The position numbers and the translations under genes are program-made. Below are positions 7,407 through 47,289 of a DNA stretch of 64,000 nt, piece by piece. Numbering within the stretch: the first letter of the stretch is position 1; every line of letters starts with the position of its first letter. The stretch comes from Escherichia coli (lineage in GTDB: Bacteria > Pseudomonadota > Gammaproteobacteria > Enterobacterales > Enterobacteriaceae): NCBI RefSeq assembly GCF_003334355.1, contig NZ_QOWP01000008.1; one strand, given 5' to 3'. Under the pieces are notes generated by a model. It made no database searches. It had not been told where the DNA came from and saw only the letters and a program-made list of their open reading frames with translations.

Positions 7407-8591
7407 CTAAATATCTTTAATAAACAGCAGGCAAATTATCGCAATACCCAACATCCCTATCGCCAGCCAGAACAACGCATGGTAGCTCCAGATTTCAACC
7501 ATAATTCCGTCAACAGAGCCGGCGATAATCCAGCCGACGCGTGAAGTATTTGCATATAACGTTGTCGCAGAGCCTATTTTTTCAGGCATCAGGTCCTGAA
7601 ATTAAAGCATGCCGATACCACAGAGAATACCAAGGAAGATGGCATTAAGAATTTGCAATTCCAGCTCAACCGCCGGAGTCGTCGCCATGAGTACGCTGGC
7701 GTAAAAACACATTCCACTCACGATAGCAATGAGCATTAATAGTCGCTTGCCAATACGTTTCATGTAATAGCCTGCGATTAACATCATCGGAATTTCCAGA
7801 CCGGCAGCGATACCAATCATTTCTCCAGCCAGTTTATCGGTTAGATGCAGTTCATCAATAATAAATAGCGGCATATTTATCATGTAGAGATTATTCGCCG
7901 CCCACATCATTGAACAGACCACAAAAAGTAGCCGCGTATCCCGCTTCCTGTGGGTGGAGGGTAAAATTTCTACGGGTTGGGTAACGACAGGAATATTTCT
8001 TTGTATTGATGGCAAAAACAACCAGACTATCAGCCCGCAAACAACAAATGCGATGGCAGCGGTGAGATACATCACTTTAAAACTAAATCCCATTGCCAGT
8101 TCATAAGCGAGCGGTGGCCCGATAACCCAGGCAAGCGAGATCTGAGCACGTAAAAATGTACTGAACATGACCGTCTCACGGCCTGTTCTGTCGGCGTGTT
8201 CACGGGCGAGGGCGAACATTTGCGGGTTTGCGGTGGAAGCAAAACTACTCAGAAGTACGCCCGTTGAGAGGAGAATGAAGTAGTTGCGATTCCACGCAAA
8301 AAGCGTGCAGGCCAGCACTCCAAATAAGCAACATAGCAGAATCAGTAATTTACGGTCGCCTTGTTTATCGGAGTGCCTTGCCAGAAATTGACTGACCAGA
8401 ATTCCCATAATAGCGCTACCGGTGAAGAAAAAACCTACCATTATAGGACGGGCTTTCAGTTCATCTGCGAGGAATATACTTAGGGTAGGAGTCTGAAGAG
8501 CGCCCGCAATACCCGTCAGAAAGGCGACAAGTAAAAATGCCGCGGCAGTGAGATCAAGTATTTTTGATGGAGTGGTAGCCGTTTTTTGCAT
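7407..8591 (-). pseudogene. setC: sugar efflux transporter SetC homolog interrupted by one in-frame TAA (codon 330 of a 394-codon frame)
   Basis: ORFs 7602..8591 (329 aa) and 7407..7589 (60 aa) are in the same frame, separated only by TAA (minus-strand 7602-7604) plus four codons (F Q D L); 329+1+4+60 = 394 codons, the length recalled for K-12 SetC. Confidence 0.6.
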
Positions 8592-9227: not shown

Positions 9228-9322
9228 TGGCGGAAGATCACAGGAGTCGAACCTGCCCGGGACCGCTGGCGGCCCCAACTGGATTTGAAGTCCAGCCGCC
9301 TCACCGGAGACGACGATCTTCC
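9228..9322 (-). tRNA. selC: tRNA-Sec (selenocysteine tRNA), 95 nt including CCA
   Basis: Reverse complement of 9228-9322 reads GGAAGATCGTCGTCTCCGGTGAGGCGGCTGGACTTCAAATCCAGTTGGGGCCGCCAGCGGTCCCGGGCAGGTTCGACTCCTGTGATCTTCCGCCA, the recalled E. coli selC sequence. Confidence 0.92.
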
Positions 9323-26961: not shown

Positions 26962-27786
26962 CTATTTCTTCTCTGTAATTTTTACACTGTTTTCCAACTG
27001 CTTGATGCTGACCTGCGGGGTCGGCAACTCCTCAGGCATGGTTCCGCCAAGTTCCTGAATGGTTTGCCTCACCTTGCGACCCACGTCAAAGTGTGTGGTG
27101 TTTGCTTGCTGTTTTGAATTCACGCCATCCCGCTTGAGTTTTTCTTCTGTTTGGGTAGCTCGAAAGAGATTAGCCGCCAGTTCTGTTGAACCCATATGAT
27201 CCAGGATCTTCTGACTCTTTTTCAGCCCCTTCCGCTGATGGATGGCTTTCTGATCTAATCCACCATACAGCCCCCGGTAACCATGATTCTGAAATATGGC
27301 GAAATCGATAGCTGTCGCTACCCCAGCTTGCTGCGCTGCCTCAACTAATTGTTTGTTATGTTCTTTCAATTCATTTCTCAGAAAAAGACGCTTTTCGTCT
27401 TCACGAAGTTGCCTGAAAGCTTCATCGTCAGCCAGCTCCTGCCGTCGGGTCTGGATAGCAAAATAAGTTTGCCCTGCCGCAATAACCGGTTTCGCAGGGT
27501 CGCCGTTTTGTACTACCAGGTAACAGGCATAGCGGGAGAGATGAACATCTTCAAGTTCTCGTTGAGCCCCTGAACCTAATACAACCATTTTGGTGGTTTC
27601 AACGAAATGGTCAGATGCAGCTTGATTGCTGGCTTCGCACGCTTGAGTCGCGCGGGCAAGTACCTTTTGAAAATTGCGCCAGTCCCGATAATCCAGTAAC
27701 GGTGCCAATTCTCTCGCTGACCAAAATTCTTGCCCTTCAGTGCCATAATGCCGTATTTCTTCAAAAGGTTGATGATGTTCGTTCAT
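26962..27786 (-). CDS. dinD: DNA-damage-inducible protein D, 274 aa
   Basis: ORF 26962..27798; start MNEHHQPFEE; LexA box directly upstream. Confidence 0.7.
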   Translation of the reverse strand: MNEHHQPFEEIRHYGTEGQEFWSARELAPLLDYRDWRNFQKVLARATQACEASNQAASDHFVETTKMVVLGSGAQRELEDVHLSRYACYLVVQNGDPAKPVIAAGQTYFAIQTRRQELADDEAFRQLREDEKRLFLRNELKEHNKQLVEAAQQAGVATAIDFAIFQNHGYRGLYGGLDQKAIHQRKGLKKSQKILDHMGSTELAANLFRATQTEEKLKRDGVNSKQQANTTHFDVGRKVRQTIQELGGTMPEELPTPQVSIKQLENSVKITEKK

Positions 27787-27831
27787 TGCCCACTCCATGT
27801 GATATCGATTGCAAAGAAAGTAAATCTGTAA

Positions 27832-35243: not shown

Positions 35244-37008
<1,765 letters not shown>

Positions 37009-37320
37009 AGTAAATAGCTGACTTATGGATGTGCTGGGGATTCTATGTATTTAGCTGTGGCTTTACCATTACTTTTCCCGTTTTTGACTTAAATAGCAAT
37101 TTACCCGCCAATTCTTGCTGAACATCTATACTTTTTTTGTATTTTATGCGATTCATTGATTTCTGCTGTACGTGCAGGAAGGAATCGCAGAGCAACAGTG
37201 AAAGAATATGGTTGCTAATGATTATATTTGATTGATTTCTTTATTGAAAATCAACAATGTGCTTAAAAATCATTCGGGTCGGATTGCCGCGAAAGAAGTG
37301 ATACACTAGCGCGTCAATAT

Positions 37321-37370
37321 CAGTGCGGTATCAGTATTCAGGTAGCTGTTGAGCCTGGGGCGGTAGCGTG
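37321..37370 (+). promoter_or_regulatory. JUMPstart element with ops site (GGCGGTAGCGTG at 37359-37370), RfaH-dependent antitermination signal for the waaQ operon
   Basis: cagtgcggtatcagtattcaggtagctgttgagcctggggcggtagcgtg matches the JUMPstart/ops consensus, about 50 bp upstream of waaQ. Confidence 0.75.
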
Positions 37371-37419
37371 CTTTTTCTGCTTCACCTTAATCGGATAATC
37401 TCAACAAAAAGAGTTACTT

Positions 37420-38478
37420 GTGGATAAGCCATTTCGAAGAATTTTGCTCATTAAGATGCGTTTTCATGGGGATATGTTATTAACTACTCCCGTCATTAGT
37501 TCGCTGAAAAAAAATTACCCTGACGCAAAAATCGATGTGCTGCTTTATCAGGACACCATCCCGATCCTGTCTGAAAATCCAGAGATTAACGCGCTCTACG
37601 GCATAAAAAATAAAAAAGCAAAAGCCTCAGAAAAAATTGCCAACTTTTTTCATCTCATCAAGGTATTACGTGCCAATAAGTATGACCTTATCGTCAATCT
37701 TACCGATCAATGGATGGTTGCTATACTGGTTCGCTTATTAAATGCCCGTGTGAAAATTTCCCAGGATTATCATCATCGGCAGTCTGCTTTTTGGCGTAAA
37801 AGTTTCACCCATTTGGTGCCGTTGCAGGGTGGAAATGTGGTGGAAAGTAACTTATCCGTGCTGATACCATTGGGACTTGATTCGTTGGTGAAGCAGACAA
37901 CCATGAGTTACCCGCCTGCAAGCTGGAAACGTATGCGTCGCGAACTTGATCACGCTGGTGTTGGACAAAATTATGTGGTTATCCAACCTACGGCGCGGCA
38001 AATCTTCAAATGCTGGGACAACGCCAAGTTTTCCGCTGTGATTGATGCCTTACATGCTCGTGGTTATGAAGTCGTTCTGACGTCCGGCCCAGATAAAGAC
38101 GATCTGGCCTGCGTCAATGAAATTGCGCAGGGATGCCAGACGCCACCAGTAACGGCGCTGGCTGGAAAGGTGACCTTCCCGGAACTTGGTGCGTTAATCG
38201 ATCATGCGCAGCTGTTTATTGGCGTTGATTCCGCACCGGCGCATATTGCCGCTGCAGTTAATACGCCGCTGATATCGCTGTTTGGTGCGACAGACCATAT
38301 TTTCTGGCGTCCCTGGTCAAATAACATGATTCAATTCTGGGCGGGAGATTACCGGGAAATGCCAACGCGCGATCAGCGTGACCGAAATGAGATGTATCTT
38401 TCGGTTATTCCGGCGGCAGATGTCATTGCTGCTGTCGATAAATTACTGCCCTCCTCCACGACAGGTACGTCGTTATGA
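37420..38478 (+). CDS. waaQ: LPS heptosyltransferase III (GT9)
   Basis: ORF track 352 aa; start codon in the track is GTG at 37420 (exact start uncertain); RILLIKMRFHGDMLLTTPVISSLKK heptosyltransferase N-terminus. Confidence 0.8.
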   Translation: MDKPFRRILLIKMRFHGDMLLTTPVISSLKKNYPDAKIDVLLYQDTIPILSENPEINALYGIKNKKAKASEKIANFFHLIKVLRANKYDLIVNLTDQWMVAILVRLLNARVKISQDYHHRQSAFWRKSFTHLVPLQGGNVVESNLSVLIPLGLDSLVKQTTMSYPPASWKRMRRELDHAGVGQNYVVIQPTARQIFKCWDNAKFSAVIDALHARGYEVVLTSGPDKDDLACVNEIAQGCQTPPVTALAGKVTFPELGALIDHAQLFIGVDSAPAHIAAAVNTPLISLFGATDHIFWRPWSNNMIQFWAGDYREMPTRDQRDRNEMYLSVIPAADVIAAVDKLLPSSTTGTSL

Positions 38479-39599
38479 TCGTTGCTTTTTGTTTATATAA
38501 ATATTTTCCCTTTGGCGGTTTGCAGCGCGATTTTATGCGTATTGCTCAGACAGTCGCCGCCCGAGGTCATCATGTTCGGGTTTATACCCAGTCGTGGGAA
38601 GGCGAATGCCCTGATGTATTTGAACTGATCAAAGTACCGGTTAAATCGCATACCAATCACGGGCGCAATGCGGAGTATTTTGCCTGGGTGCAAAAACATT
38701 TACGCGAACATCCCGTCGATAAAGTCGTTGGATTCAACAAAATGCCGGGGCTGGACGTTTATTATGCCGCTGATGTTTGTTATGCCGAGAAAGTAGCGCA
38801 GGAGAAAGGCTTTTTCTATCGCCTGACGTCACGTTATCGCCATTATGCCGCCTTTGAGCGGGCAACCTTCGAACAGGGTAAGCCGACACAGCTGCTGATG
38901 CTGACAGATAAGCAAATCGCCGATTTCCAGAAACATTATCAGACTGAAGCGGAGCGTTTTCATATTCTGCCACCGGGGATTTATCCTGATCGTAAATATA
39001 GCCAGCAGCCAGCCAATAGCCGTGAAATCTTCCGTAAGAAGAATGGAATAACCGAACAACAATATTTATTGTTGCAGGTCGGTTCAGACTTCACGCGTAA
39101 AGGTGTCGATCGTTCCATTGAAGCACTTGCTTCGTTACCGGATTCGCTGCGCCACAACACATTGCTATATGTTGTTGGGCAGGATAAACCGCGAAAATTT
39201 GAGGCACTGGCAGAAAAACGCGGCGTGCGCAGTAATGTTCACTTCTTCTCGGGGCGCAACGATGTCTCGGAATTAATGGCGGCGGCGGATTTATTACTGC
39301 ATCCTGCCTACCAGGAAGCGGCGGGAATTGTGCTGCTGGAAGCGATTACTGCAGGATTACCGGTACTAACAACAGCCGTTTGTGGCTATGCGCATTATAT
39401 TGTCGAGGCCAATTGCGGCGAGGCTATTGTTGAGCCATTCCGCCAGGAAACATTGAATGAGATTTTACGCAAAGCGTTAACGCAATCTTCATTGCGCCAG
39501 GCCTGGGCGGAAAATGCGCGACATTATGCTGATACACAAGATTTATACAGTCTGCCAGAGAAAGCGGCGGATATCATAACGGGTGGTCTGGATGGTTGA
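38475..39599 (+). CDS. waaG: LPS core alpha-1,3-glucosyltransferase I (GT4), 374 aa
   Basis: 374 aa; [24 protein letters not shown]; 4-bp overlap with the waaQ stop. Confidence 0.85.
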
Positions 39600-40389
39600 A
39601 CTTAAAGAGCCGTTTGCCACGTTATGGCGCGGCAAAGATCCTTTTGAGGAAGTTAAAACCTTGCAGGGTGAGGTATTTCGTGAACTGGAAACTCGCCGTA
39701 CTCTGCGCTTTGAAATGGCGGGCAAAAGCTATTTTCTCAAATGGCATCGCGGCACGACCCTGAAAGAGATAATCAAAAATTTACTCTCATTGCGGATGCC
39801 AGTATTAGGCGCTGACCGCGAATGGAATGCGATTCATCGACTGCGGGATGTCGGCGTTGATACTATGTATGGGGTGGCATTTGGCGAAAAAGGCATGAAT
39901 CCGCTGACCAGAACTTCATTTATTATTACCGAAGATCTGACACCAACCATAAGTCTGGAAGATTACTGTGCTGACTGGGCGACTAACCCTCCAGATGTTC
40001 GCGTAAAGCGTATGCTTATTAAGCGTGTCGCGACGATGGTGCGCGATATGCATGCTGCGGGCATTAACCACCGTGACTGTTATATCTGTCATTTCCTGCT
40101 GCACTTGCCTTTTTCCGGTAAGGAAGAGGAGTTAAAAATTTCGGTAATTGACCTGCACCGGGCGCAGCTTCGCACGCGCGTTCCACGTCGTTGGCGGGAT
40201 AAAGATCTTATTGGGCTTTATTTTTCTTCGATGAATATCGACCTGACTCAGCGGGATATCTGGCGGTTTATGAAAGTGTATTTTGCCGCCCCGCTTAAAG
40301 ACATTCTCAAGCAGGAACAAGGACTGCTGTCGCAAGCAGAAGCAAAAGCCACAAAAATCAGGGAAAGAACGATTCGAAAATCGTTGTAA
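39592..40389 (+). CDS. waaP: LPS core heptose(I) kinase, 265 aa
   Basis: ORF 39583..40389; start [21 protein letters not shown]; kinase-like HRDCYICH motif. Confidence 0.85.
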
Positions 40390-40404
40390 TTTCCGGAGAG
40401 AAAT

Positions 40405-41421
40405 ATGAGTGCCCACTATTTTAATCCACAAGAGATGATCACTAAGACAATCATCTTCGATGAAAGGCCAGCGGCGTCAGTGGCATCATCATTCCATGTT
40501 GCTTATGGCATTGATAAAAACTTTCTTTTTGGTTGTGGTGTTTCAATCACGTCAGTTTTGTTACATAACAACGACGTGAGTTTTGTTTTCCACGTTTTTA
40601 TTGATGATATCCCTGAAGCCGATATCCAGCGTTTAGCCCAATTGGCGAAAAGCTATCGTACCTGTATCCAGATCCATCTGGTAAATTGTGAACGGCTTAA
40701 GGCATTACCGACGACCAAAAATTGGTCTATTGCCATGTATTTCCGTTTTGTAATTGCAGATTACTTTATTGATCAACAAGATAAGGTTCTTTACCTGGAT
40801 GCTGATATCGCCTGTCAGGGAAACTTAAAGCCGCTGATAACAATGGATCTTGCCAATAACATTGCTGCTGTTGTTACTGAACGCGATGCTAACTGGTGGT
40901 CGTTACGGGGTCAAAGTCTGCAGTGTAATGAACTTGAAAAGGGTTACTTTAATTCAGGTGTCCTGTTAATTAATACACTAGCGTGGGCGCAGGAGTCCGT
41001 TTCTGCTAAAGCGATGTCGATGCTTGCTGATAAAGCCGTCGTTTCCCGTTTAACCTATATGGATCAAGATATACTTAATCTTATCCTGTCAGGGAAAGTT
41101 AAATTCATTGATGCTAAATACAATACGCAATTTAGTTTAAATTATGAATTAAAAAAATCATTTGTTTGTCCAATTAATGATGAAACCGTATTAATTCATT
41201 ATGTCGGCCCGACAAAACCCTGGCATTACTGGGCCGGTTATCCAAGTGCGCGACCTTTTATCAAAGCCAAAGAGGCATCGCCCTGGAAAAATGAACCGTT
41301 AATGCGGCCAGTTAACTCAAACTATGCTCGTTATTGCGCCAAGCATAATTTTAAACAAAATAAACCAATTAACGGGATAATGAATTATATTTATTATTTT
41401 TATTTAAAGATAATAAAATGA
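40405..41421 (+). CDS. waaO: family-8 LPS alpha-1,3-glucosyltransferase (WaaO/WaaI type), 338 aa
   Basis: GT8 signatures (YGIDKNFLFG, LYLDADI, NSGVLLIN); first outer-core gene after waaP; symbol assigned by position in an R1/R4-type order. Confidence 0.65.
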   Translation: MSAHYFNPQEMITKTIIFDERPAASVASSFHVAYGIDKNFLFGCGVSITSVLLHNNDVSFVFHVFIDDIPEADIQRLAQLAKSYRTCIQIHLVNCERLKALPTTKNWSIAMYFRFVIADYFIDQQDKVLYLDADIACQGNLKPLITMDLANNIAAVVTERDANWWSLRGQSLQCNELEKGYFNSGVLLINTLAWAQESVSAKAMSMLADKAVVSRLTYMDQDILNLILSGKVKFIDAKYNTQFSLNYELKKSFVCPINDETVLIHYVGPTKPWHYWAGYPSARPFIKAKEASPWKNEPLMRPVNSNYARYCAKHNFKQNKPINGIMNYIYYFYLKIIK

Positions 41422-41437
41422 AATTGAGAAAAGTTAA

Positions 41438-42433
41438 ATGAATGAATTTATAAAAGAACGGTTTTCGTATTTAGCAGATAATAAAAAAGAAAACGCCCCA
41501 GAGCTAAATGTTTCCTACGGTATCGATAAGAATTTTTTGTATGGTGCTGGCGTTTCAATTTCTTCCGTTTTGATTAATAATTCAGATATTAATTTTGTCT
41601 TTCATGTTTTCACTGATTATGTGGATGATGATTATTTAAAGTCATTTAATGAAACAGCAAAACAATTTAATACCTCAATTATTGTATATTTAATTGACCC
41701 CAAATACTTTGCTGATCTGCCGACGTCACAGTTTTGGTCGTACGCGACATACTTCAGGGTATTGTCTTTTGAATATCTGAGTGAAAGTATTTCCACACTG
41801 CTGTATCTGGATGCCGATGTTGTTTGTAAAGGAAGCCTGAAACCTCTCACAGAAATTATATTTAAAGATGAGTTTGCTGCGGTCATTCCTGACAATGATA
41901 GTACGCAGGCGGCATGTGCAAAACGCCTCAACATTCCCGAAATGAATGGACGTTATTTCAATGCAGGCGTTATCTATGTCAATCTTAAAAAATGGCATGA
42001 AGCAAATTTGACACCGTATTTACTCAAGCTTTTACGAGGGGAAACTAAATATGGCTCTCTTAAATATTTAGATCAGGATGCGTTGAATATCGCATTTAAT
42101 ATGAATAATATCTACCTCGGGAAGGATTTTGATACTATTTATACCCTGAAAAATGAACTTCATGATCGTAGTCATCGAAAGTTTCAGCAAACCATTACCG
42201 ATAAAACAGTATTGATTCACTATACAGGGATAACTAAACCATGGCATAGCTGGGCTGGATATCCGTCTGCATCATACTTTAATATCGCGCGTGAACAATC
42301 TCCCTGGAAGAAATATCCTCTTAAAGAGGCGCGGACTGTTGCAGAAATGCAGAAACAATATAAGCATCTGTTTGCCCATGGTGAGTATATAAAAGGCATA
42401 ACTTCATTAATTAAGTACAAGCTTAAGAAATAA
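41438..42433 (+). CDS. waaT: family-8 LPS alpha-1,2-glycosyltransferase (WaaT/WaaJ type), 331 aa
   Basis: GT8 signatures (YGIDKNFLYG, LYLDADVVCKGSL, NAGVIYVN); paralogous to the ORF at 43161; symbol by position. Confidence 0.55.
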   Translation: MNEFIKERFSYLADNKKENAPELNVSYGIDKNFLYGAGVSISSVLINNSDINFVFHVFTDYVDDDYLKSFNETAKQFNTSIIVYLIDPKYFADLPTSQFWSYATYFRVLSFEYLSESISTLLYLDADVVCKGSLKPLTEIIFKDEFAAVIPDNDSTQAACAKRLNIPEMNGRYFNAGVIYVNLKKWHEANLTPYLLKLLRGETKYGSLKYLDQDALNIAFNMNNIYLGKDFDTIYTLKNELHDRSHRKFQQTITDKTVLIHYTGITKPWHSWAGYPSASYFNIAREQSPWKKYPLKEARTVAEMQKQYKHLFAHGEYIKGITSLIKYKLKK

Positions 42434-42442
42434 ATTACTCTT

Positions 42443-43135
42443 ATGATTACAAGTATACGTTATCGCGGCTTCTCATTTTATTACAAAGATAATGATAATA
42501 AATATAAAGAAATCTTTGATGAAATACTGGCCTATAATTTTAAAACAGTAAAAGTATTACGTAATATTGATGATACCAAAGTATCGTTGATTGATACGAA
42601 ATATGGTCGCTATGTTTTTAAAGTCTTTGCTCCGAAAACGAAAAGGAATGAACGTTTTTTAAAATCTTTTGTAAAAGGTGACTACTATCAGAATTTGATC
42701 GTTGAAACCGATCGTGTCAGAAGTGCAGGTCTTACTTTTCCTAATGATTTTTATTTTCTGGCTGAGCGTAAAATTTTCAACTATGCCAGTGTTTTTATCA
42801 TGCTTATCGAGTATGTCGAGGGCGTAGAGCTCAATGATATGCCGATTATTCCAGAAAATGTTAAAGCAGAAATTAAGGCTTCAATGGAAAAATTGCATGC
42901 CTTAAATATGCTATCGGGCGACCCACACCGGGGTAATTTTATCGTTAGTAAAGATGGTGTCAGGATAATTGACCTATCCGGTAAAAGCTGTACGGCAGAG
43001 CGTAAAGCTCGTGATCGTCTGGCCATGGAACGTCACCTGGGTATTGCCAACGAAATAAAAGATTATGGCTACTATTCAGTAATCTACAGAACCAAACTAC
43101 GCAAATTTATTAAAAAATTAAAAGGCAAAGCGTAA
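42443..43135 (+). CDS. waaY: LPS core heptose(II) kinase WaaY, 230 aa
   Basis: MITSIRYRGFSFYYKDNDNKYKEIFDEILAYNFKTVKVLRN; kinase-like, AT-rich. Confidence 0.75.
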   Translation: MITSIRYRGFSFYYKDNDNKYKEIFDEILAYNFKTVKVLRNIDDTKVSLIDTKYGRYVFKVFAPKTKRNERFLKSFVKGDYYQNLIVETDRVRSAGLTFPNDFYFLAERKIFNYASVFIMLIEYVEGVELNDMPIIPENVKAEIKASMEKLHALNMLSGDPHRGNFIVSKDGVRIIDLSGKSCTAERKARDRLAMERHLGIANEIKDYGYYSVIYRTKLRKFIKKLKGKA

Positions 43136-43160
43136 ACCACACAGTCAAAACGGAACCAAC

Positions 43161-44189
43161 ATGGATTTATTAGCTGAGAGTATTTCTGAAGTCGCTGTCT
43201 CTGGGGAAATTGCTAACACCGATCGTGTGTTAAATATCGCTTACGGTATTGACCGTAACTTTTTATTTGGTGCGGCAGTATCTATGCAATCAGTTGTTAT
43301 GCATAACCCGGACCTTGCGGTTAAGTTTCATCTCTTTACCGACTACATTGATGAAGATTATCTACAACGTGTTAATGCTTTTACCAGCAAAAATGCTAAC
43401 GTTGAAGTAAGAATTTATAAAGTCTCCAATGCCTTTATTGATATCTTCCCCAGCCTGAAACAGTGGTCTTATGCAACATTCTTCCGTTTAGTTGCGTTCC
43501 AGTATCTGAGTGAAACTATTGAAAATCTGTTATATATCGATGCTGATGTCATCTGTAAAGGCTCATTAGCTGGATTGCTTGATATTAATTTTGATGGGGA
43601 TAAGTTTGCAGCTGTTATTAAAGATGTGCCTTTTATGCAGGAAAAACCAGCGAAGCGTCTGGCTATAGAGGGACTTCCAGGGAATTATTTCAACGCCGGT
43701 GTAGTATATCTGCAGCTTGAAGCATGGGCGAAAAATGATTTTATGAATAAAGCCATTGCTATGCTGGCAAGTGACCCGCAGCACACGAAGTATAAATGCC
43801 TTGATCAGGATATTTTAAATATTCTGTTTTTTGGTCATTGTATTTTTATTAGCGGCGATTATGATTGCTTTTATGGCATCGATTATGAGTTAAAAAATAA
43901 AAGCGATGAAGATTATAAAAAGACCATTACCGATGATACTAAGCTGATTCATTATGTTGGCGTAACGAAGCCCTGGAACGACTGGACGAATTATCCCTGC
44001 CAGAACTATTTTAATGAGGCTTATCAGGCTTCTTGCTGGAATGATGTGGCGTTTATTCCAGCCACGAATGAAAAGCAGTATCAAGTGAAATCCAGACATT
44101 TGAAAAGAAATGGTAATATTGCATCTTCATTTTACTATTTCATGCTCTATTATAGTAAGAAAATAGCGCGTAAGCATTTTTCCAAATAA
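43161..44189 (+). CDS. waaW: family-8 LPS alpha-1,2-glycosyltransferase (WaaW/WaaR type), 342 aa
   Basis: GT8 signatures (YGIDRNFLFG, LYIDADVICKGSL, NAGVVYLQ); clear paralog of 41438..42433; symbol by position. Confidence 0.55.
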   Translation: MDLLAESISEVAVSGEIANTDRVLNIAYGIDRNFLFGAAVSMQSVVMHNPDLAVKFHLFTDYIDEDYLQRVNAFTSKNANVEVRIYKVSNAFIDIFPSLKQWSYATFFRLVAFQYLSETIENLLYIDADVICKGSLAGLLDINFDGDKFAAVIKDVPFMQEKPAKRLAIEGLPGNYFNAGVVYLQLEAWAKNDFMNKAIAMLASDPQHTKYKCLDQDILNILFFGHCIFISGDYDCFYGIDYELKNKSDEDYKKTITDDTKLIHYVGVTKPWNDWTNYPCQNYFNEAYQASCWNDVAFIPATNEKQYQVKSRHLKRNGNIASSFYYFMLYYSKKIARKHFSK

Positions 44190-44220
44190 TTATTAAGATT
44201 AATCATCCAGAGATTTTTTA

Positions 44221-44994
44221 ATGAACTTGCCCATTTATATTGTCTCACTTAAAAGAGATATTGAGCGAAGAAATAAAATAAATGATGTTTTTCATCGATT
44301 AAATATTAATTTTGATTTTTTTGATGCCATAGATGCTAAAGACCCTCAAAATAAAGAAATTATTGATAAAATGAGATTAAGTGGTGTCGGCGCAGAAATG
44401 ACTGATGGAGAAATTGCTTGTACATTAAGTCATCAACTTATATATCAGGATATGATAGATAAAAATATAGAATGGGCAGTCATTCTCGAGGATGATGTTA
44501 TCGTCAATGAGAAATTTAAAAAATTTCTGCAATATTTTAATCTTTCTGAAAAAGACAAGTTAAAACATAATAATTTGTATTTGCTTGGAGGACAGAAAGG
44601 ATTACATGATTATCCGGTATTGGGGCAAAGCCTTTTTAGTAAAGTTAAGGTAAGTACTTGTACTTTTCGGCGTGTTAATTTCAATAAAAATAAAATTCGG
44701 CGTACATGTTCATATTTGATGAATAAAGATATGGCACAAAAGTTGCTCAAATTGACAAAGGATTATGGCACCTATCGAGCTGATAGCTGGAAGTTAATGC
44801 ATCAACATAATATTATAAAAGAGTTTTATTTAGACGAAATAATATTACATCCTATTTTAAATGAGTTTAATAGTCATCTTGAAAGTGAAAGGCTATTAAC
44901 ATCGGAAAAAAAACAACCTAGAACAAGGCTTCAGAAAAGAATGAAGTTTATACGCTCCTGGATAAAGGTGGCTTTTTTTTCTCTTTTGAAATGA
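44221..44994 (+). CDS. family-25 LPS beta-glycosyltransferase (Lic2A/LgtB-like); candidate WaaX-type beta-1,4-galactosyltransferase, 257 aa
   Basis: N-terminal IYIVSLKRDIERR...FDFFDAIDAKDP and downstream ILEDDVIV resemble GT25 (Lic2A/LgtB) proteins; sits at the waaV/waaX position immediately before waaL. Confidence 0.55.
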   Translation: MNLPIYIVSLKRDIERRNKINDVFHRLNINFDFFDAIDAKDPQNKEIIDKMRLSGVGAEMTDGEIACTLSHQLIYQDMIDKNIEWAVILEDDVIVNEKFKKFLQYFNLSEKDKLKHNNLYLLGGQKGLHDYPVLGQSLFSKVKVSTCTFRRVNFNKNKIRRTCSYLMNKDMAQKLLKLTKDYGTYRADSWKLMHQHNIIKEFYLDEIILHPILNEFNSHLESERLLTSEKKQPRTRLQKRMKFIRSWIKVAFFSLLK

Positions 44995-45028
44995 GATTGT
45001 TAATTTCAATTTGTTGTGAGATATTAAC

Positions 45029-46282
45029 GTGGAAGTAAAAATTGAGCAATTTCGAAATAATAGCTGTAATTTTATTTTTTTATTGTATTTAATCGGTTTG
45101 TTGTTTGTGCCAATTGATCTTAATATCACCACTAAAATAATTAATGCGACAGGTGCATTTTCTCTTTTCTTATTAATTGTAAATAAAAAGCATAATTATA
45201 ATAAAAATGTCATTATATTAATTCTTGGTTTACTTCTTTTGGGTGCAATGAACCTGATATGGTATGAATTTTATAAAACAGAAGATGTAGTATATAGAAA
45301 TGCTTATCGAGGCTACCTTGAGTCTGGAAAACTATTAGTATTTAGCTCGTTGACATTTTTATTACTAAGTAAAAATAAATTCAGGCAAAATGAAAAACTA
45401 CATTTTATTTCAGCCATCTTAGTTCAAATAATCATGCTATGTAGAGCATATTATCAAGGGATATATTTGCATGCAGACCGCATTCCCCTCTCCGCCATGA
45501 ATGGGAATATTGGTCAAATGGGGGCAGCGACTATTGCGGCTTATGTGATTACATTCACCACTTTATATTCTTCAATTGTATTCATCAAAATGCAATCGAA
45601 ATATAAATGGTTTCTATTTTATGCTAACTTTGCTTTAAGTTTTGCTGCAGTAACAATGACTGGCACTAGGGCGGCGATTTTTACATTCCCACTAATGATT
45701 ATGGTTATTTTATTAATACAATATCGTAATCAGAGAGTGTTTTTATTTAAAGGATTGAGTGGTTTCTTTTTTTTATTTCTAGTATGCGGATTAATATTCA
45801 ATAAGGGAATTGAAAGACGGATCAACGCATTACAAACAGATGTGATTTCCTATACTACAAAAAATAATAGCAATTCATCAGTAGGTGCGCGGTTTGCTAT
45901 GGTTAATGCAGGTATTAAGGGTAGTCCCGATACTTTAGGATGGCAATCCCTTGAAGAGCGAGCCAAAAAGATAAAAGCTTTAAGTTTAGATAATAATATT
46001 TATAATAGTGTTCTTCCTTTTCTGGATGTACATATGCATAACGAAATTGTGGAATCTCTTTCCACGAAAGGAAAAATTGGTCTTCTTGTTCTTATTATGT
46101 TCTATGTTGCAATGATCTATTACTGTATCCGGGAGAAAAAATATATACTCTTGGTTTTCCCTGCTTCTATTATGTTATTTGGCATTAGTGATGTCATTAC
46201 ACATGCTAAACCAATACCGGCATCGTGGATTGTGTGCCTCTTCCTGTCTACATCGTTTTTGAGTAAAAAAGAACCACAATAA
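45029..46282 (+). CDS. waaL: O-antigen ligase, 417 aa polytopic membrane protein
   Basis: About 10-12 predicted TM helices, very AT-rich, last gene of the waaQ-direction operon; GTG start in track (exact start uncertain). Confidence 0.65.
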   Translation: MEVKIEQFRNNSCNFIFLLYLIGLLFVPIDLNITTKIINATGAFSLFLLIVNKKHNYNKNVIILILGLLLLGAMNLIWYEFYKTEDVVYRNAYRGYLESGKLLVFSSLTFLLLSKNKFRQNEKLHFISAILVQIIMLCRAYYQGIYLHADRIPLSAMNGNIGQMGAATIAAYVITFTTLYSSIVFIKMQSKYKWFLFYANFALSFAAVTMTGTRAAIFTFPLMIMVILLIQYRNQRVFLFKGLSGFFFLFLVCGLIFNKGIERRINALQTDVISYTTKNNSNSSVGARFAMVNAGIKGSPDTLGWQSLEERAKKIKALSLDNNIYNSVLPFLDVHMHNEIVESLSTKGKIGLLVLIMFYVAMIYYCIREKKYILLVFPASIMLFGISDVITHAKPIPASWIVCLFLSTSFLSKKEPQ

Positions 46283-46297
46283 TAAAAGCGTTGACTA

Positions 46298-46333
46298 AGT
46301 AAGTGGGTATAATACCCACTTACTATTTATTAA
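46298..46333. terminator. bidirectional terminator between convergent waaL and waaC
   Basis: perfect 13-bp inverted repeat agtaagtgggtat / atacccacttact (46298-46325) followed by T-rich tract. Confidence 0.6.
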
Positions 46334-47289
46334 ATCAATGTGATTTTTTTATAAACAGCCGCTGCTTCTAAATTATTTAAATTCATTAGCGGAGCCCTAC
46401 AAACCATCTGATTCTTCCCATACCCGCCAATTAATCCAGGGTCGGTAGGTCCATAAACCGTGATATTGGGTCTATCCAGTGCCGCCGTTAAATGGCTTAA
46501 CCCCGTATCCACCGACACTACAAATTTAGCCCCGGCCAGCACGCGGGCAACGCCTTCCAGACTCATCTTAGGCAATACTTCAACATAAGCAAATCCTTCC
46601 GCCAGTCGTTTCGCCCGTTCTTCCTCATGCGGCGCGCCCCACGGAAGTTTAATCCGTATTCCTGAATCAGCCAGTAAACCAATCAATTCTCGCCAGTGTT
46701 CTTCCGGCCAGTGTTTATCATCACGGGTCGTCGCATGAAGAAATACGGCATATTCGCCAGCATCTGTAGGCAGGTTCGTCAGAAAATGCTGTGCGATAGC
46801 ATAATCGCCCTGGGTTTGCGGTTTGCTATAGCCCAAACTTTTGGCAAACAGTTCGCGGGTGCGTTCTACGGCGTGCTGCTGTTTTGCAATATGATGCTTA
46901 CGATTGTAAAACAGACTGGCTAAAGGTTCGCGAGCGGTTTTCCAGTCCATGCCATGCTTTACGCCATGCGCCAGACGCGTCACCAGCGCCGCGCTTTTTA
47001 CCAGCCCCTGAGCGTCGATAACTGCGTCATAGTTCTCTGCTTGTAGCGCTTCACGAAACGCTTTGCGTTCCGCTTTTATGGGGGCCGAGAACCAGGCTTT
47101 ACGCCAGCGACGTATTGCCACAGGAATAACTCGCTCAACGGCAGCGTGCCAGGAAGGAATCTGTGCGAACCCTTCTTCCACCACCCAGTCAAACTTAATC
47201 CCTGGGATTGCCTGCTGGGCATCAGTGAGTGCGGGCAACGTATGGAGAACATCGCCCATCGACGATGTTTTAACGATCAAAACCCGCAT
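46330..47289 (-). CDS. waaC: LPS heptosyltransferase I, 319 aa
   Basis: MRVLIVKTSSMGDVLHTLPALTDA; GT9. Confidence 0.9.
   Translation of the reverse strand: MRVLIVKTSSMGDVLHTLPALTDAQQAIPGIKFDWVVEEGFAQIPSWHAAVERVIPVAIRRWRKAWFSAPIKAERKAFREALQAENYDAVIDAQGLVKSAALVTRLAHGVKHGMDWKTAREPLASLFYNRKHHIAKQQHAVERTRELFAKSLGYSKPQTQGDYAIAQHFLTNLPTDAGEYAVFLHATTRDDKHWPEEHWRELIGLLADSGIRIKLPWGAPHEEERAKRLAEGFAYVEVLPKMSLEGVARVLAGAKFVVSVDTGLSHLTAALDRPNITVYGPTDPGLIGGYGKNQMVCRAPLMNLNNLEAAAVYKKITLI

Follow-up and report, generated by a model that had tools for sequence, protein, structure and literature searches.

A GT25 glycosyltransferase gene between waaW and waaL of an Escherichia coli waa locus is best explained as waaX, the R4-core-specific gene of the waaQ operon

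The closest described counterpart of the gene considered here is waaX of the Escherichia coli R4 prototype strain F2513, reportedly described by Heinrichs, Yethon, Amor and Whitfield in 1998 (J Biol Chem 273:29497), and Amor et al. 2000 are said to have used waaX as the marker for R4 typing, the classical R4 primer pair reportedly being theirs as well. This use of waaX as R4 marker is already known, i.e., standard since 1998-2000 and routine in in-silico typers (LPSTyper 2025). In the literature, waaX is given as the marker of R4 and waaV as that of R1 (PMC11237799), with waaX encoding a beta-1,4-galactosyltransferase and waaV a beta-1,3-glucosyltransferase, and the two core types are told apart by amplicon, namely waaW-waaX of 380 bp for R4 and waaW-waaV of 842 bp for R1 (PMC13293308). 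Structurally, the R4 core exhibits a beta-Galp-(1->4) residue on a ->2,4)-alpha-Glc; in an R4 rough strain, MS/MS showed ECA to be attached to this beta-Gal, and the O-antigen site of R4 at the beta-Gal is only "assumed" there, by analogy with the beta-Glc of R1 (PMC7504096). Respective to the linkage formed by WaaX, one review gives beta-1,3 (PMC3526765) and two other sources give beta-1,4 (PMC7504096; PMC13293308); following the structural and typing papers over the review, it is taken here as beta-1,4. In the window, i.e., the whole 64-kb stretch of DNA analysed here, the open reading frame (ORF) at 44221-44994 is best explained as waaX, namely the R4-core-specific gene of the waaQ operon whose product adds the R4 beta-1,4-Gal branch (probability of about 0.95).

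In the ORF map of the window, this ORF runs from ATG to stop over exactly 44221-44994 on the + strand and encodes 257 aa, and the reverse strand of the same interval is full of stops; it is a real gene and not a chance reading frame. Its translation starts with MNLPIYIVSLKRDIERR and also holds FDFFDAIDAKDP and ILEDDVIV, just as the first-pass annotation had quoted them when it placed a 257-aa ORF there and assigned its product to family 25 of the glycosyltransferases (GT25). The family assignment held in the HMM search, where PF01755 (Glyco_transf_25) matched residues 4-186 with E=2.1e-51 and a score of 175 (model positions 3-195 of 199), and the same domain was present in all of the 47 homologues found. 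WaaX is a GT25 glycosyltransferase. A 100%-identical gene in RefSeq E. coli chromosomes is annotated "glycosyltransferase family 25 protein", no family or equivalog model matched the protein in an NCBIfam scan, and the 90%-identity cluster to which it belongs comprises 938 member sequences, for one of which the UniRef name is "Beta-1,4-galactosyltransferase". The closest homologues, at 50-71% identity, come from other Enterobacterales, namely Cedecea, Pluralibacter, Citrobacter, Buttiauxella, Leclercia and Erwinia, several enterobacterial homologues likewise carry the name beta-1,4-galactosyltransferase, and a word-indexed homologue search returned enterobacterial relatives only.

From adeD, selC and spoT through the waa locus to lldP, the window and the chromosome of E. 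coli strain 720632 run collinear and are 99.5-99.97% identical, and the RefSeq-annotated waa locus used for comparison is 99.8% identical to that of the window. Following waaA on the - strand, the order on the + strand is waaQ (37420), waaG, waaP, waaO, a GT8 gene at the waaT position, waaY, a GT8 gene (waaW), the GT25 gene and waaL, with waaC, waaF and waaD converging on the waaL end of the waaQ operon. Both the ORF map and the RefSeq annotation place waaX as the eighth gene of the series waaQ-G-P-O-T-Y-W-X-L, between waaW and waaL. The host locus is an ordinary R4-type waa locus in an ordinary E. coli chromosome, and its features are the following:

37359-37366, + strand: ops element GGCGGTAG, 54 nt upstream of waaQ (exact match)
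43161-44189, + strand: waaW, GT8 gene common to R1 and R4 (annotation; shared typing-primer site 44030-44056)
44119-46389, no strand: R1/R4-variable cassette of 2,271 bp (2.27 kb), low GC (blastn of the window against the R1-type locus L002, blocks stopping at 44118 and resuming at 46390)
44221-44994, + strand: waaX, GT25 glycosyltransferase, best explained as the R4-core-specific beta-1,4-galactosyltransferase gene (ORF, PF01755, RefSeq annotation, R4 primer sites)
44488-44496, + strand: codons of E90-D91-D92 (ILEDDV), DXD-type motif (invariant in 21 homologues; aligns to FEDD of 8xc8)
44926-44991, + strand: C-terminal basic/amphipathic helix, residues ~236-256, ending ...LQKRMKFIRSWIKVAFFSLLK (modelled as H236-256; outside the Pfam domain)
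45029-46282, + strand: waaL, R4-type O-antigen ligase, 417 aa, GC 32% (annotated "O-antigen ligase family protein")
46298-46324, + strand: perfect hairpin with a 12-bp stem, AGTAAGTGGGTA TAA TACCCACTTACT, between the convergent waaL and waaC (terminator-like scan)

All genes from waaQ through waaL lie on the same strand, either overlapping or set apart by short gaps, and the ops element upstream of waaQ is known for this long operon as the place where RfaH is recruited. Around waaX, promoter-like sites showed no excess, their count being below the expectation from shuffled sequence, and an internal promoter for waaX is thereby unsupported. The hairpin at 46298-46324, lying within the R4-specific cassette, is likely the operon terminator and would act bidirectionally. 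The ops element upstream of waaQ, the lack of an excess of promoter-like sites and the hairpin after waaL suggest that waaX is the last cistron but one of an RfaH-dependent waaQ operon, from which it is presumably transcribed in an ops-dependent manner.

Elsewhere in the window, dinD (26962-27798, - strand) is an intact ORF of 278 aa, whereas the annotation of the 99.5%-identical strain 720632 gives it a frameshift. The tRNA-Sec gene selC lies at 9228-9322 (- strand) and is a classical integration site of pathogenicity islands; in the near-identical annotated genome its neighbour is a short rhuM pseudogene remnant only, and the site appears unoccupied in the window.

Typing primers were then compared with the window. 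The R4 pair of LPSTyper (PMC13293308) has exact sites at 44030-44049 (+) and 44391-44409 (-), for a product of 380 bp (44030-44409), while the R1 waaV primer has no site in the 64-kb window with up to 3 mismatches allowed. On the control R1-type locus (L002, strain MS21199), the R1 pair finds sites at 8588 and 9429 and yields 842 bp, as published. These results bear out the earlier proposal of an R4-type core locus. For the classical R4 pair, printed in PMC5120500, the window contains an exact site at 44037-44056 (+) and, with one extra base, a site at 44717-44736 (-), i.e., a product of 700 bp versus the 699 bp published. This 1-nt indel in the R4C4 site, TGCCATA-CTTT versus TGCCATATCTTT, was found by reading the site and was missed by a mismatch-only search; as printed in PMC5120500, R4C4 is TGCCATACTTTATTCATCA, where the window reads TGCCATATCTTTATTCATCA, and the indel probably reflects a mistake in the original reference sequence or primer. 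Both R4 reverse-primer sites (44391-44409 and 44717-44736, - strand) lie within waaX. Identity with the WaaX of prototype F2513 would as such be supported indirectly, by primers, annotation names and locus architecture.

At the equivalent position of the R1-type locus, i.e., between waaW and waaL of strain MS21199, stands a gene for a 327-aa "glycosyltransferase family 2 protein" (GT2). An identity of the window ORF as WaaV or another GT2 protein is out, BLASTP against this 327-aa protein giving a best E=5 and 10-residue fragments only. The first-pass annotation had taken WaaX, the R4 enzyme, to be Lic2A-like and WaaV, the R1 enzyme, not to be; with a GT25 protein in the window, a GT2 protein in the R1 slot and the R4 primer results, this view is therefore correct.

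The difference between the two loci is not confined to waaX, and the earlier description is refined in this respect, since it spans a cassette of 2.27 kb. By blastn against the R1-type locus, identity is 98.0% for positions 37000-44118 of the window and 97.4% for what follows from 46390, while no DNA similarity was detectable for 44119-46389. Within the cassette lie waaX, waaL and the intergenic hairpin, together with the tails of waaW and waaC. Its edges fall inside coding sequence, taking in ~71 nt at the 3' end of waaW and ~60 nt at the 3' end of waaC, so that WaaW and WaaC end differently in R1 and R4: WaaW is 92% identical to the WaaW of the R1 locus with the last ~35 aa divergent, and WaaC counts 319 aa in the window versus 326 aa in the R1 locus. 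The WaaL proteins of R4 (45029-46282) and R1 (L002 9858-11111) both have 417 aa, with 35% identity and 58% positives. Because the cassette swaps waaL together with waaX, the discriminating unit is thus the waaX-waaL pair and not waaX by itself. The GC content is 30% in waaX and 32% in waaL, against 35-38% in the shared outer-core genes, 47-54% in the inner-core genes and 50% in the whole window; a GC content this low is typical of surface-polysaccharide cassettes that are exchanged horizontally. On a separate point, the R1 and R4 WaaL are termed "highly similar" in the literature, which is the basis of the assumed R4 O-antigen site, whereas they are 35% identical here.

Across complete E. coli genomes, waaX occurs in 692 of 5,426 (12.8%), with a median of one place per genome; 652 of the matching records are at least 99% identical and 41 more lie at 95-99%. 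A megablast of the stretch from waaY to waaL (42443-46282) found its waaY-waaW part in 2,526 of the 5,426 genomes and the whole stretch in 691. In the ~1,835 other genomes the flanks are common at ~98% identity, and the class representative, L002, carries its GT2 gene in the waaX slot. Three places of waaX are listed on plasmids. The one inspected, NZ_CP059911.1 (strain 181.1, "plasmid p4", 3,245 bp), was deposited as circular and contains waaY, waaW and a truncated waaX and nothing else; a plasmid-borne waaX is here most likely an assembly artefact. In a single genome, NZ_CM173843.1 of strain 1368KP, an ISEc1 insertion (ISAs1 family) splits the R4 waaY to waaL stretch, and this strain is possibly rough or of altered core.

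As regards the protein, A36, C67, S70, H71, L89, E90, D91, D92 and Y165 are invariant in an alignment of 21 sequences reaching down to 23% identity. By analogy with GT-A enzymes, E90-D91-D92 would be expected to bind a divalent metal and the UDP-sugar, and to serve in catalysis. The AlphaFold model built on this alignment reached a pLDDT of 89 and a pTM of 0.85, and its top PDB matches by Foldseek were those of a bacterial GT25 beta-1,4-galactosyltransferase (8xgx, 8xc8, 8xlz and 8xkd; E~1e-10), further matches being mimivirus R655, human COLGALT1 with Mn2+ and UDP-Gal, and then generic GT-A enzymes; GT25 enzymes of the GT-A fold were matched at E 1e-10 to 1e-8. By sequence, the best solved relative is also 8xc8 (E=5e-13, residues 6-106). 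The confident model thus predicts a GT-A fold for WaaX. In the C-terminal helix the pattern RSW..K..FFS is kept in close homologues, and the modelled helix is probably a peripheral anchor to the inner membrane on its cytoplasmic side.

Taken with the literature, from which we infer the donor sugar, the linkage, the acceptor, the ligation site and the membrane association, a scheme for the action of WaaX can be proposed. [quoted passage not shown] There, WaaO, WaaT and WaaW would make the shared Glc-Glc-Gal-Gal backbone, and WaaX, with UDP-galactose as donor and a divalent metal held by E90-D91-D92, would place the beta-1,4-Gal side branch on the second outer-core glucose (GlcII). MsbA would flip the finished core to the periplasmic face, where the co-inherited R4-type WaaL would then ligate O-antigen (or ECA), most probably onto the beta-Gal. 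That the terminal beta-residue shapes the ligation site, as had been put forward from the first reading of the DNA, fits the published R4 data, where the beta-Gal is the assumed O-antigen site and the residue onto which ECA is ligated (PMC7504096). With waaX in its waaQ operon, an LPS core of R4 type, with a Gal3Glc2 outer core, is predicted for the source strain, and the WaaX enzyme activity is predicted likewise.

Two other explanations deserve consideration. On the one hand, the locus could be R1-type or an R1/R4 hybrid, in which the GT25 gene would be accessory, or a passenger without activity, and the core would be beta-Glc-branched as in R1, or mixed. PMC13293308 describes such a hybrid, with waaV-waaL (R1) and waaX-waaL (R4), for ECOR46, the backbone from waaO to waaW is common to R1 and R4 at ~98% identity, and the window covers 64 kb of the genome, so that a second waaV-waaL copy could sit elsewhere. 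Yet the R1 waaV primer finds nothing to match in the window even at 3 mismatches, the slot is filled by one intact GT25 ORF with an R4-type waaL after it, and waaX has a single place in the collinear complete genome, as it has in the median genome of the survey, which makes a hybrid or R1-type locus extremely improbable.

On the other hand, the gene in the waaX slot could be a GT25 gene whose product has a specificity unlike that of the prototype, e.g., a UDP-Glc donor or another linkage, leading to a non-canonical core. In GT25 enzymes, a few substitutions, down to single residues, can change both donor sugar and linkage, as with LpsA and Lex2B of Haemophilus; family membership alone is therefore no proof of UDP-Gal or of beta-1,4. 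Moreover, the link to F2513 WaaX is an indirect one, and the review mentioned above has the linkage as beta-1,3 (PMC3526765). Nevertheless, the near-uniformity of waaX, i.e., at least 99% identity in 652 records and 95-99% in 41 more, is that of a population typed R4, two independent R4 primer sets both match, the chemically determined R4 structure has beta-Gal-(1->4) (PMC7504096), and the sources name WaaX and its enterobacterial orthologues beta-1,4-galactosyltransferase; an altered specificity is accordingly very unlikely. Just as doubtful is a variant wherein this GT25 allele and the divergent waaL together give a branch or ligation site unlike that of the textbook R4, e.g., O-antigen attached off the beta-Gal, which is conceivable because the R4 attachment site is only assumed by analogy with R1; if true, core chemistry would not be uniform among "R4" genomes. 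The reading of the ORF as waaX of an R4-type locus is hence the one retained.

On this reading, the source strain can be assigned to LPS core type R4, which is a useful annotation and not a discovery, and the core type affects recognition by phages, antibodies and core-targeted vaccines as well as the place of O-antigen attachment. The additions made here are modest, namely the exact cassette boundaries inside waaW and waaC and the divergence of R1 and R4 WaaL, quantified at 35% identity.

Compared with the described systems, the window gene resembles most the R4 WaaX of E. coli F2513: it is likewise a GT25 gene in the waaW-waaL slot of the waaQ operon with an R4-type waaL next to it, both published R4 primer pairs match with the expected sizes, and it marks a minority core type (12.8% of genomes). 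The sole discrepancy, in a comparison made via primers, naming and locus, is the 1-nt indel at R4C4. With WaaV of R1 it shares the equivalent slot between waaW and waaL and the equivalent role, i.e., the placing on GlcII of a beta-hexose that is the attachment point of O-antigen, but WaaV is a GT2 protein of 327 aa forming beta-1,3-Glc, without detectable similarity to the window's GT25 protein with its predicted beta-1,4-Gal, and its partner WaaL has only 35% identity with that of the window. At the level of family and fold, WaaX is comparable to Lic2A, LgtB and LgtE of Haemophilus and Neisseria and to 8xc8/8xgx, with PF01755, a GT-A fold, conservation in the N-terminal 100 residues and the FFDA and (L/F)EDD motifs, and by analogy with these LOS enzymes it is predicted to be an inverting enzyme that adds a beta-galactosyl residue to core sugars of LPS/LOS. 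It nonetheless differs from 8xc8, with ~20% identity over the structural alignment, and from the Haemophilus and Neisseria enzymes by its acceptor, the enterobacterial GlcII, and by a gene that sits in the waa operon and is not phase-variable. More distantly, WaaX shares with human COLGALT1 (GLT25D1) and mimivirus R655 the GT25 fold (Foldseek E ~1e-9) and a Mn2+/UDP-Gal site on the DXD motif, whereas the latter two are multidomain proteins with a protein acceptor (collagen hydroxylysine) and only ~16% identity to WaaX.
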